This document shows positions 39,135-44,815 of a DNA stretch of 64,000 bases, in pieces. The position numbers and the translations under genes were made by a program. The notes beneath the pieces were generated by a model. The model worked only from the letters and a program-made list of their open reading frames with translations. It was not told the origin of the DNA and ran no database searches. The DNA comes from Candidatus Poribacteria bacterium (GTDB lineage: Bacteria > Poribacteria > WGA-4E > WGA-3G): positions 83,562 through 147,561 of the forward strand of contig JAJDUH010000045.1 in the NCBI GenBank assembly GCA_022826805.1, in the 5' to 3' direction. Position 1 is the first letter of the stretch; every line of letters begins with the position of its first letter.

Positions 39135-40175
39135 GTGGAAAATCAAACCCCCAAATCAATGAGCAGTCGCGAACGTGTACTCGCCGCGCTTCACAATGAA
39201 CCTACTGACCGCACCCCGGTTTGTAATCCTACATCCGTTGCAACTGTTGAGCTGATGGACCTCGTCGATGCGCCCTTCCCACAAGCGAATCGAGAACCGG
39301 AACTCATGGCGCGCCTCGCTGCGACAGGATACACTGAACTCGGATTTGACACTATCATGCCAGTCTTCACGATTATCCAAGAATCAAGTGCACTCGGATG
39401 CCAGATTCAGTGGGAACAGAAAGACAACTGGCCGACCGTTCGGATGCGTGAACCGATTTGGGAAGACGTTGACGACATCACGATTCCGGACGATTTTTTG
39501 ACGCACCCGGATACCCAATGTGTACTTGAAGCGATTAAAATCCTGAAGAAGGAATACGGGGATGAAGTCGCTGTAATTGGGAAAACGATGGGACCTTGGT
39601 CGCTCGGCTATCACTGTTTCGGGGTCGAACCTTTTCTGTTGTTGTCCCTTGACGATCCCGGTAAAACGAAACTCGCTCTTGATCGGATGAAGGAAGCCAC
39701 CGTACAATTTGGTGTAGCACAGATCGAAGCGGGGGCAGATGCACTCACGCTTCCAGATCACGCTACAGGCGATTTGGTGAGTGGGGAATACTACGAACGT
39801 TACCTTCGGGATCTTCACATTGAATTTGTTGAGCGTATCCCTATCCCTTTGATTCTTCATATCTGTGGACGCACGATTGATAGGATGGAGTACATCGCGC
39901 AAACCGGTATGGCTGCCTTCCATTACGACTCCAAAAATGAGCCGCAGGAATCCATGGACATCGTGCAAAAACGCATTGCCCTTGTCGGAAACATTAACAA
40001 CCCTGAAACGCTGTTTGCCAAAGAACCAGAGCATGTTAAAGCGGAAGTTACGAAAAATCTTGACGCAGGCATTCCACTGATTGGACCGGAGTGCGCGATC
40101 CCCCTACAAACAACCATCGAAAACCTTCAAGCGATCCCTGAAGCTGTCCGAGAATGGCACCGCGCGAACGCATAA
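39135..40175 (+). CDS. MtaA/CmuA-family methylcobamide methyltransferase (URO-D superfamily)
   Basis: SSRERV, HICG Zn motif, GNI, PEC. Confidence 0.8.
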   Translation: MENQTPKSMSSRERVLAALHNEPTDRTPVCNPTSVATVELMDLVDAPFPQANREPELMARLAATGYTELGFDTIMPVFTIIQESSALGCQIQWEQKDNWPTVRMREPIWEDVDDITIPDDFLTHPDTQCVLEAIKILKKEYGDEVAVIGKTMGPWSLGYHCFGVEPFLLLSLDDPGKTKLALDRMKEATVQFGVAQIEAGADALTLPDHATGDLVSGEYYERYLRDLHIEFVERIPIPLILHICGRTIDRMEYIAQTGMAAFHYDSKNEPQESMDIVQKRIALVGNINNPETLFAKEPEHVKAEVTKNLDAGIPLIGPECAIPLQTTIENLQAIPEAVREWHRANA

Positions 40176-40195
40176 TCACCCATGTGGAAAAACTT

Positions 40196-40804
40196 ATGAG
40201 ACAATTGATCTGTTTTTTGCTAATAGCAACGTTGACACTGACGTTCCTAACCTTCGGGCATACACAAAATGTGGACTTTGATCCGCTGAGTGCTTCTGAC
40301 GTCAACACTGATGGCGTTGTCAATATTCTCGACCTAACCTTCATCGCCTCCCGTTTTAGTGAAAACCTCACCATAGACCAACATCCGAACCCAGATGTTA
40401 ACGGGGACGGGACTGTGAATATCCTCGACTTAACACTGGTCGCAAGTTATTTAGGCAAAAGATCTGGGATTCCTTTTGAGGTCACGGACGCGAATTTTGA
40501 TGAGATCGTTTTGGGTTCTGAGCCGCCTATTGTTGTAGAATTTAAAGACGATACCTGAATATTTTGCATACGTATGCGACCGGTGGTCGCAGAGGTAGCA
40601 TTGGAATATCGCGAGAACTTCAGTTTCGTCAAGCTGGATGTGCGCACCCAACGGGAGAAAACGGCTGAATACCAAATTCGGGGAACGCCCACTTATATTG
40701 TATTTAAAGATGGCGCAGCTATAGGCGGATTTGCTGGGGCAATGCCTAAGGCTGAATTGGTACAGCGAATTCTTGAAATCTTAGGAACTGAAGAAAACGA
40801 GTAG
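40196..40804 (+). CDS. Putative exported selenoprotein: signal peptide, dockerin-like domain, thioredoxin with UxxC (TGA 40556-40558 read as Sec)
   Basis: ORFs 40154..40558 and 40574..40804 are in frame; join reads VVEFKDDT-TGA-IFCIRMRP; DVNTDGVVNILDL and DVNGDGTVNILDL; cis-Pro GTPT. Confidence 0.85.
40575..40591 (+). promoter_or_regulatory. Candidate bacterial SECIS hairpin 1
   Basis: TGCGACC-GGT-GGTCGCA begins after a 16-nt spacer from the TGA. Confidence 0.55.
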
Positions 40805-40841
40805 CGTGTTGATCACAAACTGATACACAAGAGGATAACAC

Positions 40842-42677
40842 ATGAAAAAAATAATTTGCTTATTGCTAACGCTAAGTCTGACCCTACTACTCATGCCAGC
40901 AAGCTACGCTCAAGATACAAATCTTGACCTTCTGAGGGCATCGGATGTAAATGGTGATGGCGTGGTAAATATCCTTGATCTGACGCTTATTGCCTCGCGT
41001 TTCGGAGCAATACCCACCGAAAACCAGCGTTTAAATCCAGATGTAAACGCCGACGGCTTTGTCAACATCCTTGATTTGACACTCGTTGCCGGGCATTTGG
41101 GCAAAACCGTCCGTCCACCCGTTTCATTCGTTAGCGCAAATCCAGGAATCGATTCGCAGCTTGATGTGAACGCGACGATTACCTTGACCTTTGACGATAC
41201 ACCTGATGACGTTACCGCGAACACAGGGATTGTCATAATCACTGATGAGACTGTGACAATCACGGGGGCCTTCGATCCGGGTTCTCTCGCTTTGACGGTT
41301 ACCTGGGCAGATGGCACACAAACACTTAACTATACCATCAGGCAACCAGCGGCATTCGTTAGTGTCGATCCCGCAATCGGTTCGCAGCTTGAGACAGACA
41401 ATACTATTACGTTGACCTTTGATAATGCACCAGAGGACGTCACTGTGAGTACGGGTACTGCTACAATTACCGATAAGACCGTGGTAATCACAGGTCCATT
41501 TGATCCAGGTCTTCTCGTCTTGACCATCACTTGGAAGGATGGAACGCAAACGCTCAATTATACCGTCAGACAACCGGTGGCGTTTGTTAGAGCGAAACCA
41601 GCAGCTGGTGCAACGCTCACCATTGATGCCCCTATTACGCTGACCTTTGATAATGCACCAGAGGACGTCACTGTGAGTACGGGTACTGCTACAATTACCG
41701 ATAAGACCGTGGTAATCACAGGTCCATTTGACCCAGGTCTTCTCGCCTTGACTATCACTTGGAAAGACGGAACGCAAACGCTCAACTATACCGTCAGACA
41801 ACCGGTGGCATTCGTTAGGGCAAATCCAACAAGTGGTGCGGAACTTGATGTAGGCGATACCATTACCCTTACCTTTGATAACCGCCCAAACAATGTTACA
41901 GTGAGCACTGGAAATGTTAGAATCACTGGCAGGAATGTGAGAATTACAGGTCCCTTTGATCCGGGTTCCCTCTCACTGACTATCACTTGGGCGGATGGGA
42001 GCAAAAGACTCAATTATACTGTCCGGACACCAGACACCGAAGCACCTCGAATTACGGGGAGAACCGTCAGCGACGGTGACAAAGACGTTGATCCCGATAC
42101 GATTAACACCAGAGCACGCATCGAAGTTGAGTTCAGCGAAGAGGTAACCGGCAATATTGTTCTACGAACTGAAGCAGGTGTCAATGCCGGTTGGCGTGGA
42201 CAAGTTGAAGGCAAGAAAGCCACCCTTGAACTGGTCAGAGGTAGAGAACTTGATAACGCGACCACCTACGTTATTGCTGGGAAAGTTAGCGATGCCGCTG
42301 GTAACGAAACCGATCTCAAGATTACCTTCACGACTGAGAGCAAGACCTCTGGTGTCCCCTTTGCGGTTACCGATGCGACTTTTAATTCGCTCGTTCTCCA
42401 ATCAGAAGTACCTGTCGTGGTCGAGTTTTGGAAAGATGGGTGACCATTCTGTCGAAGAATGGTGACAGTTGTCGCCGAAGCTGCCTCAGAGAAGCGAGAC
42501 ACATTTGCCGTCGCGAAAATGAATATTGCCCAGAGTCGGCAAACGCATCAAAAATATCGGGTTATAGGACATCCAACTTATATCGTGTTCCAAGATGGAA
42601 AGGTTGTCGGTCGTTTTGGAGGCGTGATCCCGAAACAGCAGCTGGTTAATAATATTCTTAATGCGATAAATAATTGA
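40842..42677 (+). CDS. Putative exported selenoprotein: signal peptide, dockerin-like domain, 4 x 76-aa Ig-like repeats, Big_5-like domain, thioredoxin with UxxC (TGA 42441-42443)
   Basis: ORFs 40842..42443 and 42459..42677 are in frame; join reads VVEFWKDG-TGA-PFCRRMV; cis-Pro GHPT. Confidence 0.85.
42461..42476 (+). promoter_or_regulatory. Candidate bacterial SECIS hairpin 2
   Basis: GGTGAC-AGTT-GTCGCC (one G-U pair) begins after a 17-nt spacer from the TGA. Confidence 0.5.
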
Positions 42678-42701
42678 TGACAGATCATTATTCGCGAGGT
42701 A

Positions 42702-42767
42702 TTGTACCGCAAACTGTTAGTTTGCGAAGGCTGCGCGAAGACCACAGTCTAACAGATTGTGGTACAA
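42702..42767. repeat. Imperfect inverted-repeat doublet (REPIN-like)
   Basis: TTGTACCGCAAACTGTTAG ... CTAACAGATTGTGGTACAA. Confidence 0.55.
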
Positions 42768-42803
42768 ATGCGCTGTTAAGTCTCACACTGATTACTGACA
42801 TTA

Positions 42804-42836
42804 AGCGGCGAGGTTTTCCAACCTCGCCGTTTTTTT
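42804..42836 (+). terminator. Intrinsic terminator after the selenoprotein pair
   Basis: CGGCGAGGTT-TTCC-AACCTCGCCG followed by T7. Confidence 0.75.
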
Positions 42837-42874
42837 GTCAAAATTACCTAAGTTGCACAATTTAACAGATTATG

Positions 42875-44815
42875 CTACAACTCATCTCGATGGTAAAACC
42901 ACCACTCTAAAAGTAAAATACCAAACGCAAGGAGTGCTGGAAAACGCCATATCTCCTGTGCTATCGGTTGTAGACCTGTTTCAAGCGATGCCGATTTTTC
43001 TTCCGCTTCTATCGTCGTAGCATGTGGAAGTGCGGATTCTGCAGCATCAAGCAGATTAACCGTGAAGCGTTCTAATTCTCTACCATCATCGGCGAAGAGT
43101 GTGTAGACACCCACCTGATCTGTCTGGGTGAATATCGAATCATCCAATCTGACCACTGTTTCATCCGGTTTTCGCACGTGAAGTGGTGTATCTGTGTTTT
43201 TTACTGCGACTATCACCTGTTCTCCCGTCCGAAAAGCGTGCCGAGTCCGCTCTTCTTGCGACACAATGGGTTGAAGCGTAGCGGTTCCTGCTTCCAACCA
43301 CGCCAAACACTGATAAATAAACAGCGGTCCCGCTGGTATTGTCATTGCAAAGGAAGAGATCTCTGGATTAAATGCGTCAAACTCGAAAACAAGGAATCGG
43401 GTGTCCGCTTCAGCACCGAACCAGATTAATGAACCCTTCTCCGTTTCAACAAGAGAATGTCCCCAGAGTGGTAAGTTCCGATATGTAGATTCACGCACCT
43501 GCAAACCTTGTAGGGATACACCTGCCATGAGTGGGTGCGCATCATCTGTTTTGACAACGCGCGCAGGTCCGTTACTGGTTTCTATAGAAGAAGCCTCTCC
43601 TTGCATGAAGGGTAGATTGTCGTCCGGATTGATAAAGATTAGATGCGTTTTGGCGCCAATCTCAGAAAAATTACCGAAAGCCTCGCGTCCGCTGAAGGTG
43701 CCACCATCGAAAATCGCTATATCAGCATCACCAGTTCCGTGATAATCCGCTGGTGGAACTATATCTAACACCACATGTCTTCCGTATGTGCGCAACAGAT
43801 CAGGCAATAAAGATTTCCGATTGTCACTGACGAGTAAGATTCGCAAAGGTGAGAGGCCTGATAAGATCACTGAAGCAGTGTTATCAAGCGGAAAATCGTC
43901 CTCTATCCCAAGATGGACACTGATAACCTTTCCTTCTAAACCGCTCGGATTGCCTGAAAACAGAACCGACTTGGTTTCTGCTGGCGGAATAGATATCACC
44001 CTGTCATCGAGTGGCGCGCTTTCCACCCGCAATTGAACGTTGAATTCTCTGGCGGTATCTGTGAAATTTTGGATACGAACCAGCACCTCGTACCAGTCTT
44101 CTATACTGTCAACGCTAAGTAGAACGATACCGATATTCTCAGCATCTCCGCCTATTGCAACCTTATGGAGCGGCAGGGATATATCCGGTAGCTTTTCAAA
44201 AGTATCGCTGATAAAGAAAACACTATCCTGCGGTGCGTCTGCATAGCGGGTTACAGCATCAAAAACAGGACGGAGATTGCGTGGTGCGTGGGTTGGAGGA
44301 ATATTTTCTATGGCACTCAGAAGTTGTGTGGTATCAGTTGTAAACGCTTGTTGGATATAGGAGTCCGCCCCTTCCCAGTAACGGGTGGGATGGCTTCGGC
44401 TTTCGGCTTGCGTCACCATGAGCATAATCCCGCCGCCTGCGGAAATTTGCTCAACCTGCGCCTGTGCCGCCTGCTTTGCGAGTGCAAGACGCGTTTGCCC
44501 CATCTCTTCCGACAACATACTCGCAGAGTTGTCAACTATAATGACCGCCTTTCCGGGCATGAATCCAGGTCTGCGCAGGACAGGACGTGCCACACTGAGC
44601 GTAAGGAGTAACAGAAAAAGCACCTGTAAGAGTGGAAGGAGTAGGTTCCGAAGCCGTTGGAACGGGACATTGGCTCTCCGGTCTTCGTCAGCAGATAGCC
44701 AATGCATAATGCTCGGAACGAGGTAGTTGTAGCGGCGCAACTTCAGGAAATGAAGTAGCACTATGATTGGAATTATACCTAACAGATAAAACGCGGCAGG
44801 ATTCAGAAATAGCAT
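42875..44815 (-). CDS. BatA/VWA-domain membrane protein
   Basis: FLNP N-terminus, LHFLK, ARP, MIDAS DNSASM, C-terminal LLLEWW TM. Confidence 0.85.
   Translation of the reverse strand: MLFLNPAAFYLLGIIPIIVLLHFLKLRRYNYLVPSIMHWLSADEDRRANVPFQRLRNLLLPLLQVLFLLLLTLSVARPVLRRPGFMPGKAVIIVDNSASMLSEEMGQTRLALAKQAAQAQVEQISAGGGIMLMVTQAESRSHPTRYWEGADSYIQQAFTTDTTQLLSAIENIPPTHAPRNLRPVFDAVTRYADAPQDSVFFISDTFEKLPDISLPLHKVAIGGDAENIGIVLLSVDSIEDWYEVLVRIQNFTDTAREFNVQLRVESAPLDDRVISIPPAETKSVLFSGNPSGLEGKVISVHLGIEDDFPLDNTASVILSGLSPLRILLVSDNRKSLLPDLLRTYGRHVVLDIVPPADYHGTGDADIAIFDGGTFSGREAFGNFSEIGAKTHLIFINPDDNLPFMQGEASSIETSNGPARVVKTDDAHPLMAGVSLQGLQVRESTYRNLPLWGHSLVETEKGSLIWFGAEADTRFLVFEFDAFNPEISSFAMTIPAGPLFIYQCLAWLEAGTATLQPIVSQEERTRHAFRTGEQVIVAVKNTDTPLHVRKPDETVVRLDDSIFTQTDQVGVYTLFADDGRELERFTVNLLDAAESALPHATTIEAEEKSASLETGLQPIAQEIWRFPALLAFGILLLEWWFYHRDEL

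Follow-up and report, generated by a model that had tools for sequence, protein, structure and literature searches.

Thioredoxins in which selenocysteine (Sec, U) takes the first position of the CxxC motif (UxxC thioredoxins, Trx) are a recognised selenoprotein family, and they are listed before the group "predicted with high confidence" in the main text of a 2026 inventory, which also describes most prokaryotic selenoproteins as thioredoxin-fold proteins (PMC13188914). The known Sec thioredoxins are small, cytoplasmic proteins with the PF00085 fold, a cis-Pro loop, the dipeptide GP between U and C, and a hairpin of the bacterial Sec insertion sequence (bSECIS) type downstream of the UGA. In Poribacteria, group 4 [NiFeSe] hydrogenases have been reported to use Sec (PMC13582414). 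Cohesin and dockerin modules, which build the clostridial cellulosome, are also known from non-cellulosomal systems, for example in anaerobic methanotrophic (ANME) archaea (PMC9012536; Peer et al. 2009, cited therein). Here we describe two adjacent genes, A and B, in a 64,000-nucleotide stretch of DNA from a sponge-associated Candidatus Poribacteria bacterium (contig JAJDUH010000045.1, positions 83,562 to 147,561; hereafter the window), each of which combines a dockerin with a thioredoxin domain and carries an in-frame TGA codon.

We favor, with a probability of about 0.72, the reading that A and B are a genuine selenoprotein pair and encode exported, dockerin-tethered thiol-disulfide oxidoreductases. 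Each gene is predicted to encode a thioredoxin in which the attacking Cys is replaced by Sec. The catalytic idea is not new, since UxxC thioredoxins are already a recognised selenoprotein family; what is new is the architecture, in which a signal peptide, a dockerin, an optional stalk, and a Sec-thioredoxin are arranged in a conserved tandem pair. The features of the two genes, in coordinates of the window, are as follows.

40196..40804, + strand: gene A, predicted short dockerin-thioredoxin selenoprotein; 202 codons, stop TAG; orthologues 60-88% identity
40196..40264, + strand: gene A putative signal peptide, residues 1-23; MRQ start, hydrophobic run, ...GHT/QN; judged by eye
40295..40453, + strand: gene A type I dockerin, residues 34-86; Pfam PF00404, E 8e-20
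40478..40771, + strand: gene A thioredoxin domain, residues 95-192; Pfam PF00085, E 5e-20
40556..40558, + strand: gene A predicted Sec codon TGA; U121, motif T-U-I-F-C, context VVEFKDDT-U-IFC
40842..42680, + strand: gene B, predicted long dockerin-stalk-thioredoxin selenoprotein; 611 codons, coding to 42677, TGA stop at 42678
40842..40910, + strand: gene B putative signal peptide, residues 1-23; MKK start, hydrophobic run, ...SYA/QD; judged by eye
40941..41099, + strand: gene B type I dockerin, residues 34-86; Pfam PF00404, E 1.2e-11
41112..42023, + strand: gene B stalk of four tandem 76-residue immunoglobulin (Ig)-like repeats, residues 91-394; DNA period 228 bases
42033..42335, + strand: gene B Big_5 bacterial Ig-like domain, residues 398-498; Pfam PF13205, E 1.8e-16
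42363..42656, + strand: gene B thioredoxin domain, residues 508-605; Pfam PF00085, E 2.5e-18
42441..42443, + strand: gene B predicted Sec codon TGA; U534, motif G-U-P-F-C, context VVEFWKDG-U-PFC

The initial annotation, made from the sequence alone, had proposed two adjacent genes of common architecture, with TGA at the nucleophilic Cys codon of each, that standard annotation would split into four fragments. This description is borne out, and its positions are exact. Both proteins have an apparent Sec-type signal peptide (judged by eye), a Dockerin_1 module above the Pfam cut-off, and a C-terminal Thioredoxin domain, with U121 and U534 at the first CxxC position. Translation table 11 divides 40154-42677 into four open reading frames (ORFs; 40154-40558, 40574-40804, 40842-42443, and 42459-42677), which become two, genes A and B, when TGA is read through. 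Matching pieces populate the public databases, where many 120-residue "hypothetical protein" fragments end in ...VVEFKDDT and are accompanied by C-terminal fragments of 76-79 residues.

If the two TGAs were true stops, the products would be a dockerin-only protein of 120 residues and a dockerin-stalk protein of 533 residues, with what is left of the thioredoxin in decay or translated on its own. The database fragments called as separate genes fit this explanation, as do an ATG five codons after each TGA and the use of TGA as a normal stop in the genome. However, the split would cut the thioredoxin fold at its active site, and a Met after CxxC is nothing unusual in a thioredoxin, as the aligned CGPCRM shows. 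Together with the genomic and comparative evidence given below, these points make true termination at the two codons very improbable.

The domain assignments are well above threshold. Dockerin_1 scores 71.2 bits in A and 45.1 bits in B (cut-off 22.9), covering profile positions 2-56 of 57, and the calcium-loop repeat DVNxDGxVNILDL occurs twice in each protein. PF00085 scores 71.9 bits in A and 66.4 bits in B against a Pfam gathering cut-off of 23.5. When aligned by phmmer to solved thioredoxins, U121 takes the place of the first Cys of WCGPC, and the cis-Pro loops of both proteins (GTPTY/GHPTY) align with the thioredoxin IPT. A and B thus share the fold, the Sec position, the cis-Pro loop, and a downstream bSECIS-type hairpin with known Sec thioredoxins; they differ from them in having a signal peptide, an N-terminal type I dockerin, and, in B, a roughly 400-residue Ig-like stalk, and in having IF (A) or PF (B) rather than GP between U and C. 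The n-, h-, and c-region pattern of the gene A signal peptide is kept in 20 orthologues. An AlphaFold2 (AF2) model of the gene A protein from a 20-row alignment had a mean predicted local distance difference test score (pLDDT) of 58.8, with the dockerin below 50, and was set aside.

We searched the host genome (5.09 Mb in 80 contigs) for the Sec machinery and found all four components above their curated cut-offs, as the proposal had called for.

G000:C61:20878-22773: selB; 332.6 bits against a cut-off of 242
G000:C61:22923-23012: tRNA-Sec, 150 nucleotides (nt) downstream of selB; 78.1 bits, ARAGORN anticodon tca
Contig C62, apart from selB: selA; 589 bits
G000:C45:41287-42210, - strand: selD; 360.7 bits, in-frame TGA at ...KCAGUASK, the catalytic Cys position

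The selD gene is itself a selenoprotein gene, so the Sec pathway relies on its own product. Of the 2282 open frames in this genome with 300 codons or more, 417 (18%) terminate at TGA, and so does gene B, in agreement with the earlier statement that TGA otherwise serves as a stop. At 42678-42683 gene B closes with TGA TGA, and one mRNA would therefore use TGA both for Sec and for termination; the orthologues of gene B mostly end in TAA.

These data also bear on read-through without selenium, whether the code is reassigned (TGA as Trp or Gly) or Cys or Trp is inserted by near-cognate decoding. A UGA followed by C is a leaky context, and gene B and most of its orthologues have this arrangement. 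Nevertheless, reassignment is at odds with the frequent termination at TGA, a complete set of tRNA-Sec, SelA, SelB, and SelD (the last with its own Sec codon) is present, the site aligns only with Cys in homologues, and a hairpin fixed in position relative to the codon would be unnecessary. Selenium-free read-through therefore appears scarcely credible, and the full Sec machinery argues equally against the TGAs being true stops.

We then followed the TGA codons through 176 Poribacteria genomes, 110 of which contain gene A family matches at E <=1e-25. A single TGA is present in 94 of the 106 listed near-full-length gene A rows (one of them also has a TAA), and the remaining 12 have no stop. When codons were checked at the aligned site, U was found in 19 of 20 orthologous gene A loci, with TGC in the other, and in 52 of 55 further loci, with Cys in three (this second set includes three gene B-type loci and one incomplete locus). 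The 62 gene B rows that reach 55% identity come from 61 of the 65 genomes of the genus and without exception have one TGA; the aligned Sec site is U in 30 of 30 loci. The recurrence of the same TGA in orthologues from dozens of species puts the pattern far beyond chance. Natural full-length Dockerin_1 plus Thioredoxin forms with Cys at the site also exist (CGFC, CIFC, CIYC, CPFC, or CPPC), so that both kinds of homologue sought by the initial annotation, those with TGA and those with Cys, were recovered. A midpoint-rooted tree built from 52 gene A-type proteins places the Cys forms within Sec clades, which corresponds to at least two changes.

The reading frame downstream of the TGA is under purifying selection in both genes. 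By the Nei-Gojobori method, the ratio of nonsynonymous to synonymous substitution rates (dN/dS) in gene A is 0.12 downstream of U, compared with 0.06 for the thioredoxin portion immediately before it and 0.13 for the dockerin; the calculation used 17 of 20 sequences, as three with a signal-peptide indel were dropped. In gene B the value downstream of U is 0.33, and in all 30 loci no stop interrupts the 76-80 codons that follow the TGA. The open downstream frame of gene B, the purifying selection in both genes, and the existence of full-length Cys homologues are not expected of true stops. The initial annotation had named three outcomes that would speak against it, namely a genome without Sec machinery, an unconserved TGA, and relaxed selection downstream; we found the machinery present, the codon conserved, and selection in force.

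Each TGA is followed by a SECIS-like hairpin at the same distance.

40576..40590, + strand: gene A SECIS-like hairpin, GCGACC-GGU-GGUCGC; starts 17 nt after the TGA, loop at 23 nt
42461..42476, + strand: gene B SECIS-like hairpin, GGUGAC-AGUU-GUCGCC; starts 17 nt after the TGA, loop at 23 nt

The bSECIS model as quoted in the inventory has a loop of 3-9 nt, a stem of 4-16 bp, a G in the first two loop positions, and a distance of 16-37 nt from the UGA (PMC13188914). Both hairpins agree with it, with 6-bp stems, loops of GGU and AGUU placed 23 nt from the UGA, and a G first or second in the loop. Across 44 distinct sequences of the gene A family, 86% of cells pair, compared to 17-69% in slid controls. 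Compensatory substitutions are seen at two pairs, one going from CG to AU in 8 sequences and the other from GC to AU in 6. The covariation score of this family was reached by none of 500 shuffles. In the gene B family (30 sequences), pair 23:34 is CG in 23, UG in 4, UA in 2, and AU in 1. The substitutions come at the price of different amino acids in the protein (MAPVVA, MVPVVT, MEPVVS), and this speaks for selection at the RNA level. The hairpin is retained only where the TGA is retained, as the four Cys forms examined (L048, L121, L126, and L128) keep only 2-3 of the 6 pairs. Compensatory change, and decay of the hairpin once TGA has become TGC or TGT, are again difficult to reconcile with true stops. 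One gene A subgroup appears, as read by eye, to use a hairpin shifted by 3 nt.

Taken together, the Sec machinery, the conserved TGA, the Cys homologues, the SECIS-like hairpin, and the downstream purifying selection indicate that both genes are very probably UxxC thioredoxin-fold selenoprotein genes, as had been proposed.

Several observations weigh against the selenoprotein reading or against parts of it. In gene B the dN/dS of 0.33 downstream of U exceeds the 0.16 of the 30 codons upstream. In 27 of 30 sequences the gene B hairpin has C opposite U, a mismatch, at one of its six pairs, and a control slid by -3 pairs nearly as well as the hairpin itself (84.4% vs 85.0%), though without compensatory changes; in the gene A family, pairs 22:34 and 23:33 are broken in 18 and 13 of the 44 sequences. 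The thioredoxin equivalog model TIGR01068 is not reached by either protein (64.8 and 64.9 vs 96.8 bits), so the domains are divergent members of PF00085 but not TrxA equivalogs. With regard to the tethering, a multi-cohesin scaffoldin was not found in the genome, which encodes seven cohesin proteins with one module each. Finally, a Sec-type signal alone reaches only the periplasm in a double-membraned cell, and genes A and B are without the C-terminal FlgD_ig/Por_Secre_tail found on many other dockerin proteins of this genome, so surface display is unsupported by a known sorting signal.

To place the two proteins among their possible partners, we considered the other cohesin and dockerin proteins of the genome. 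The search for cohesins suggested earlier gave seven matches in seven different proteins, and there are 34 dockerin matches in roughly 30 frames. Four cohesin proteins are paralogues of about 1300-1380 residues (L162, L163, L165, and L166, on contigs C22, C77, C8, and C73) with a signal peptide, a cytochrome-c-like N-terminus (weak PSCyt1/Cytochrome_CBB3 matches), leucine-rich repeats (LRRs), the cohesin, and FlgD_ig at the C-terminus; in three of them there is also a Dockerin_1 match at E <=0.001. Proteins that have both modules could assemble into chains or networks. The other cohesin proteins are a 1904-residue WD40/LRR protein, one that combines cohesin, dockerin, and VWA, and one with cohesin and Spondin_N (666 residues).

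We scanned 25 cohesin or dockerin proteins for cargo, leaving out about five dockerin frames. Among 18 further dockerin proteins, six carry WD40 propellers, three LRRs, two DUF3108-like domains, and one each FG-GAP/ASPIC, Sulfatase, and Cu2_monoox_C; four have no recognised cargo family. These cargoes belong to the "eukaryote-like" families long noted in Poribacteria (PMC3909097). The clostridial cellulosome resembles this genome in its type I dockerins with two calcium-binding repeats and in the presence of cohesins, but it has a scaffoldin with several cohesins and glycoside hydrolases. No glycoside hydrolase was found among the 25 proteins and no multi-cohesin scaffoldin in the genome, and the system is therefore not a cellulosome. 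Genes A and B have their dockerin at the N-terminus, whereas cellulosomal enzymes usually carry it at the C-terminus. Closer in character are the non-cellulosomal systems, in which, as here, the modules sit on non-cellulolytic proteins, multi-cohesin scaffoldins are often absent, and attachment is presumed to be extracellular (PMC9012536). The cargoes described there are substrate-binding and S-layer proteins, with no thioredoxin or selenoprotein mentioned in the passages on ANME archaea, compared to WD40, LRR, FG-GAP, sulfatase, and the seleno-thioredoxins here. A complex prediction paired the gene A dockerin (residues 25-92) and two Ca with one cohesin of the seven, that of the Spondin_N protein; its score of 0.12 (mark 0.32) speaks neither for nor against binding.

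A Por-type C-terminal sorting domain occurs in Poribacteria, and the main text of the same study of eukaryote-like families reports its secretion machinery as not found (PMC3909097). In the present genome the type IX marker SprA is matched by four sub-threshold pieces of a single 2252-residue frame (G000:C10:23707-27504, - strand; best 59.6 bits vs 200), which may be a distant SprA relative. Matches to GldK, another type IX marker, fall mostly on the C-terminal half of the model, and all are below cut-off. One of the frames with such a match to the GldK C-terminal part is a 360-residue frame with one in-frame TGA (G000:C60:6448-6909, + strand), a possible further selenoprotein gene.

The stalk of gene B was modeled from a 65-row alignment of repeat copies, which gave a confident all-beta AF2 model of the repeat unit (pLDDT 96.9). 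Among solved structures it comes closest to CopC, IPT/TIG, and Ig folds, with template modeling (TM) scores of 0.55-0.76 and a best E of 1.3e-3, none being below 0.001; within that limit, the Ig-type stalk ascribed earlier to the long form is upheld. We rejected the idea that the repeats are CopC copper-binding domains. The likeness is one of fold only, and a copper site is unlikely since the repeat consensus contains no His or Met. By motif count, the number of stalk copies varies from 0 to 5 among 30 gene B orthologues, which supports a spacer of adjustable length.

For the favored reading, we can outline how the two enzymes would be made and used. SelB would bind the hairpin and bring Sec-tRNA to the UGA, and the Sec translocon would export both proteins, the signal peptide being cleaved. 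The calcium-binding dockerin at the new N-terminus would then tether the enzyme to one of the seven cohesin-bearing secreted proteins, and in gene B the Ig-like stalk of variable length would keep the catalytic domain away from the anchor. There the enzymes would act as thiol-disulfide oxidoreductases, most likely as reductases, in the cell envelope or the extracellular matrix. The genome encodes a single three-domain DsbD (DsbD_N, DsbD_TM, and Trx), which could recharge the enzyme while it is in the periplasm. Selenium confers greater reactivity and resists over-oxidation, and in an oxidizing compartment it would offer higher reactivity and resistance to irreversible over-oxidation.

The same export and redox partners would also suit a different role, in which A and B are genuine Sec thioredoxins but ordinary DsbD-dependent periplasmic housekeeping reductases that maintain, for example, apocytochrome c or other cysteines of the envelope in the reduced state, and the dockerin binds periplasmic partners or is a calcium-binding spacer. 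The periplasm is where a Sec signal peptide alone leads in a diderm, the DsbD is complete, and the C-terminal FlgD_ig/Por_Secre_tail is missing from both proteins; speculatively, the PSCyt1/Cytochrome_CBB3 start of the four cohesin paralogues could point to a tethered reductase for heme attachment. Against this, envelope reductases of the TlpA/ResA/CcmG type belong to the Redoxin/AhpC-TSA branch and are membrane-anchored, whereas A and B are TrxA-like (PF00085). The full two-repeat dockerin is held by purifying selection (dN/dS 0.13), a stalk of 0-5 repeats is typical of distance-spanning proteins, and limitation of the fusion to one Poribacteria family would be unexpected for a housekeeping role. 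We regard this role as unlikely.

Within the favored reading, display on a cohesin scaffold with action on host disulfides, as first suggested, would be a reasonable hypothesis. A fuller version places the enzymes in a cohesin-dockerin assembly at the sponge interface, made mostly of eukaryote-like WD40/LRR proteins, which would recruit both Sec thioredoxins for extracellular disulfide reduction or reshuffling or for oxidant detoxification. One thioredoxin would be held close and the other on its adjustable Ig-like stalk, with sponge-matrix or host-surface proteins as targets. This sponge-interface version is possible but doubtful as a whole; if it is true, no earlier selenoenzyme would be known to reach its site through a dockerin, and the symbiont-host interaction would gain a redox arm. 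The whole stretch is contained in one sponge-metagenome run, which may itself have supplied this DNA, and other runs contain at most 1/4 of the sampled words; habitat is therefore not independently attested by these runs. No RNA run is listed as containing the stretch.

We next asked how far the fusion has been described. We found no description of a dockerin-seleno-thioredoxin fusion in the papers that our searches returned, as judged from the listings and from selected passages, or in curated selenoprotein families, and no NCBIfam selenoprotein model matches gene A or B at a meaningful score, in line with the initial view that this is not a described family. The words "dockerin", "sponge", and "periplasm" are absent from the main text of the 2026 inventory (PMC13188914), and words for dockerin, cohesin, thioredoxin, and selen- are absent from that of the Poribacteria study (PMC3909097). 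Sec oxidoreductases of the AhpC-TSA/Redoxin branch share with A and B a thioredoxin fold, Sec, and a role outside the cytoplasm, but they belong to another branch and are not known to carry dockerins. In the ESM Atlas, queried with the natural Cys homologue P0004, Dockerin_1 plus AhpC-TSA/Redoxin clusters from Bacillota and Fidelibacterota likewise join a dockerin to a thioredoxin-fold redox domain of a different branch; their scores of 0.75-0.84 are below 0.9 and make them leads only.

The dockerin-thioredoxin fusion is present in 109 of 111 other genomes of one Poribacteria family and in none of 64 genomes of ten other families. In a scan of reference genomes, 76 of 78 loci were titled Poribacteria and two "uncultured bacterium", and gene B-type long forms are mostly limited to the genus of the window. 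Of the best 150 matches among 1.84 billion cluster representatives, no more than three full-length proteins and a few TGA-cut fragments aligned over both domains, which suggests that the family is small. Matches of 220-260 residues in two stretches among these representatives proved to be double thioredoxins, not dockerin fusions. Two proteins, P0209 and P0260, combine PD40 repeats and a degenerate dockerin-like stretch, not called by Pfam, with a WCGPC thioredoxin; they may represent an independent fusion of a calcium-loop module to a thioredoxin.

The annotation cut at TGA hides the thioredoxin nature of these proteins in more than 100 Poribacteria genomes. On the favored reading, the thioredoxin selenoprotein family gains an exported, module-tethered architecture, and the puzzling dockerin/cohesin modules and eukaryote-like repeat proteins of Poribacteria would be linked to a catalytic redox activity, which gives a testable hypothesis on such assemblies. 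The close Sec and Cys relatives, with a SECIS hairpin decaying after Sec loss, also provide a clean natural experiment.

Genes A and B are probably co-transcribed, as a terminator-like hairpin follows gene B and no comparable site was found between the two genes.

42803..42832, + strand: intrinsic-terminator-like hairpin 3' of gene B; 13 pairs and a T run

An Rfam scan of 40000-43000 returned nothing relevant, its single chance-level match being to an sRNA over the terminator, and the neighboring genes (URO-D, RuvC, BatA/VWA, BacA, and others) show no functional link to the pair. In related genomes (for example, G011:C517, G005:C155, and G023:C178) the two genes remain adjacent in either order, which is short-long in the window and in many species and long-short in others. 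The only thioredoxins of the host genome are genes A and B and one of 111 residues without a TGA (C63). Other members of the genus have more thioredoxin paralogues, in frames of about 160-200 residues with one TGA and of about 390-440 residues without (for example, G008:C1:2309688-2310008 and G035:C84:30154-30474).

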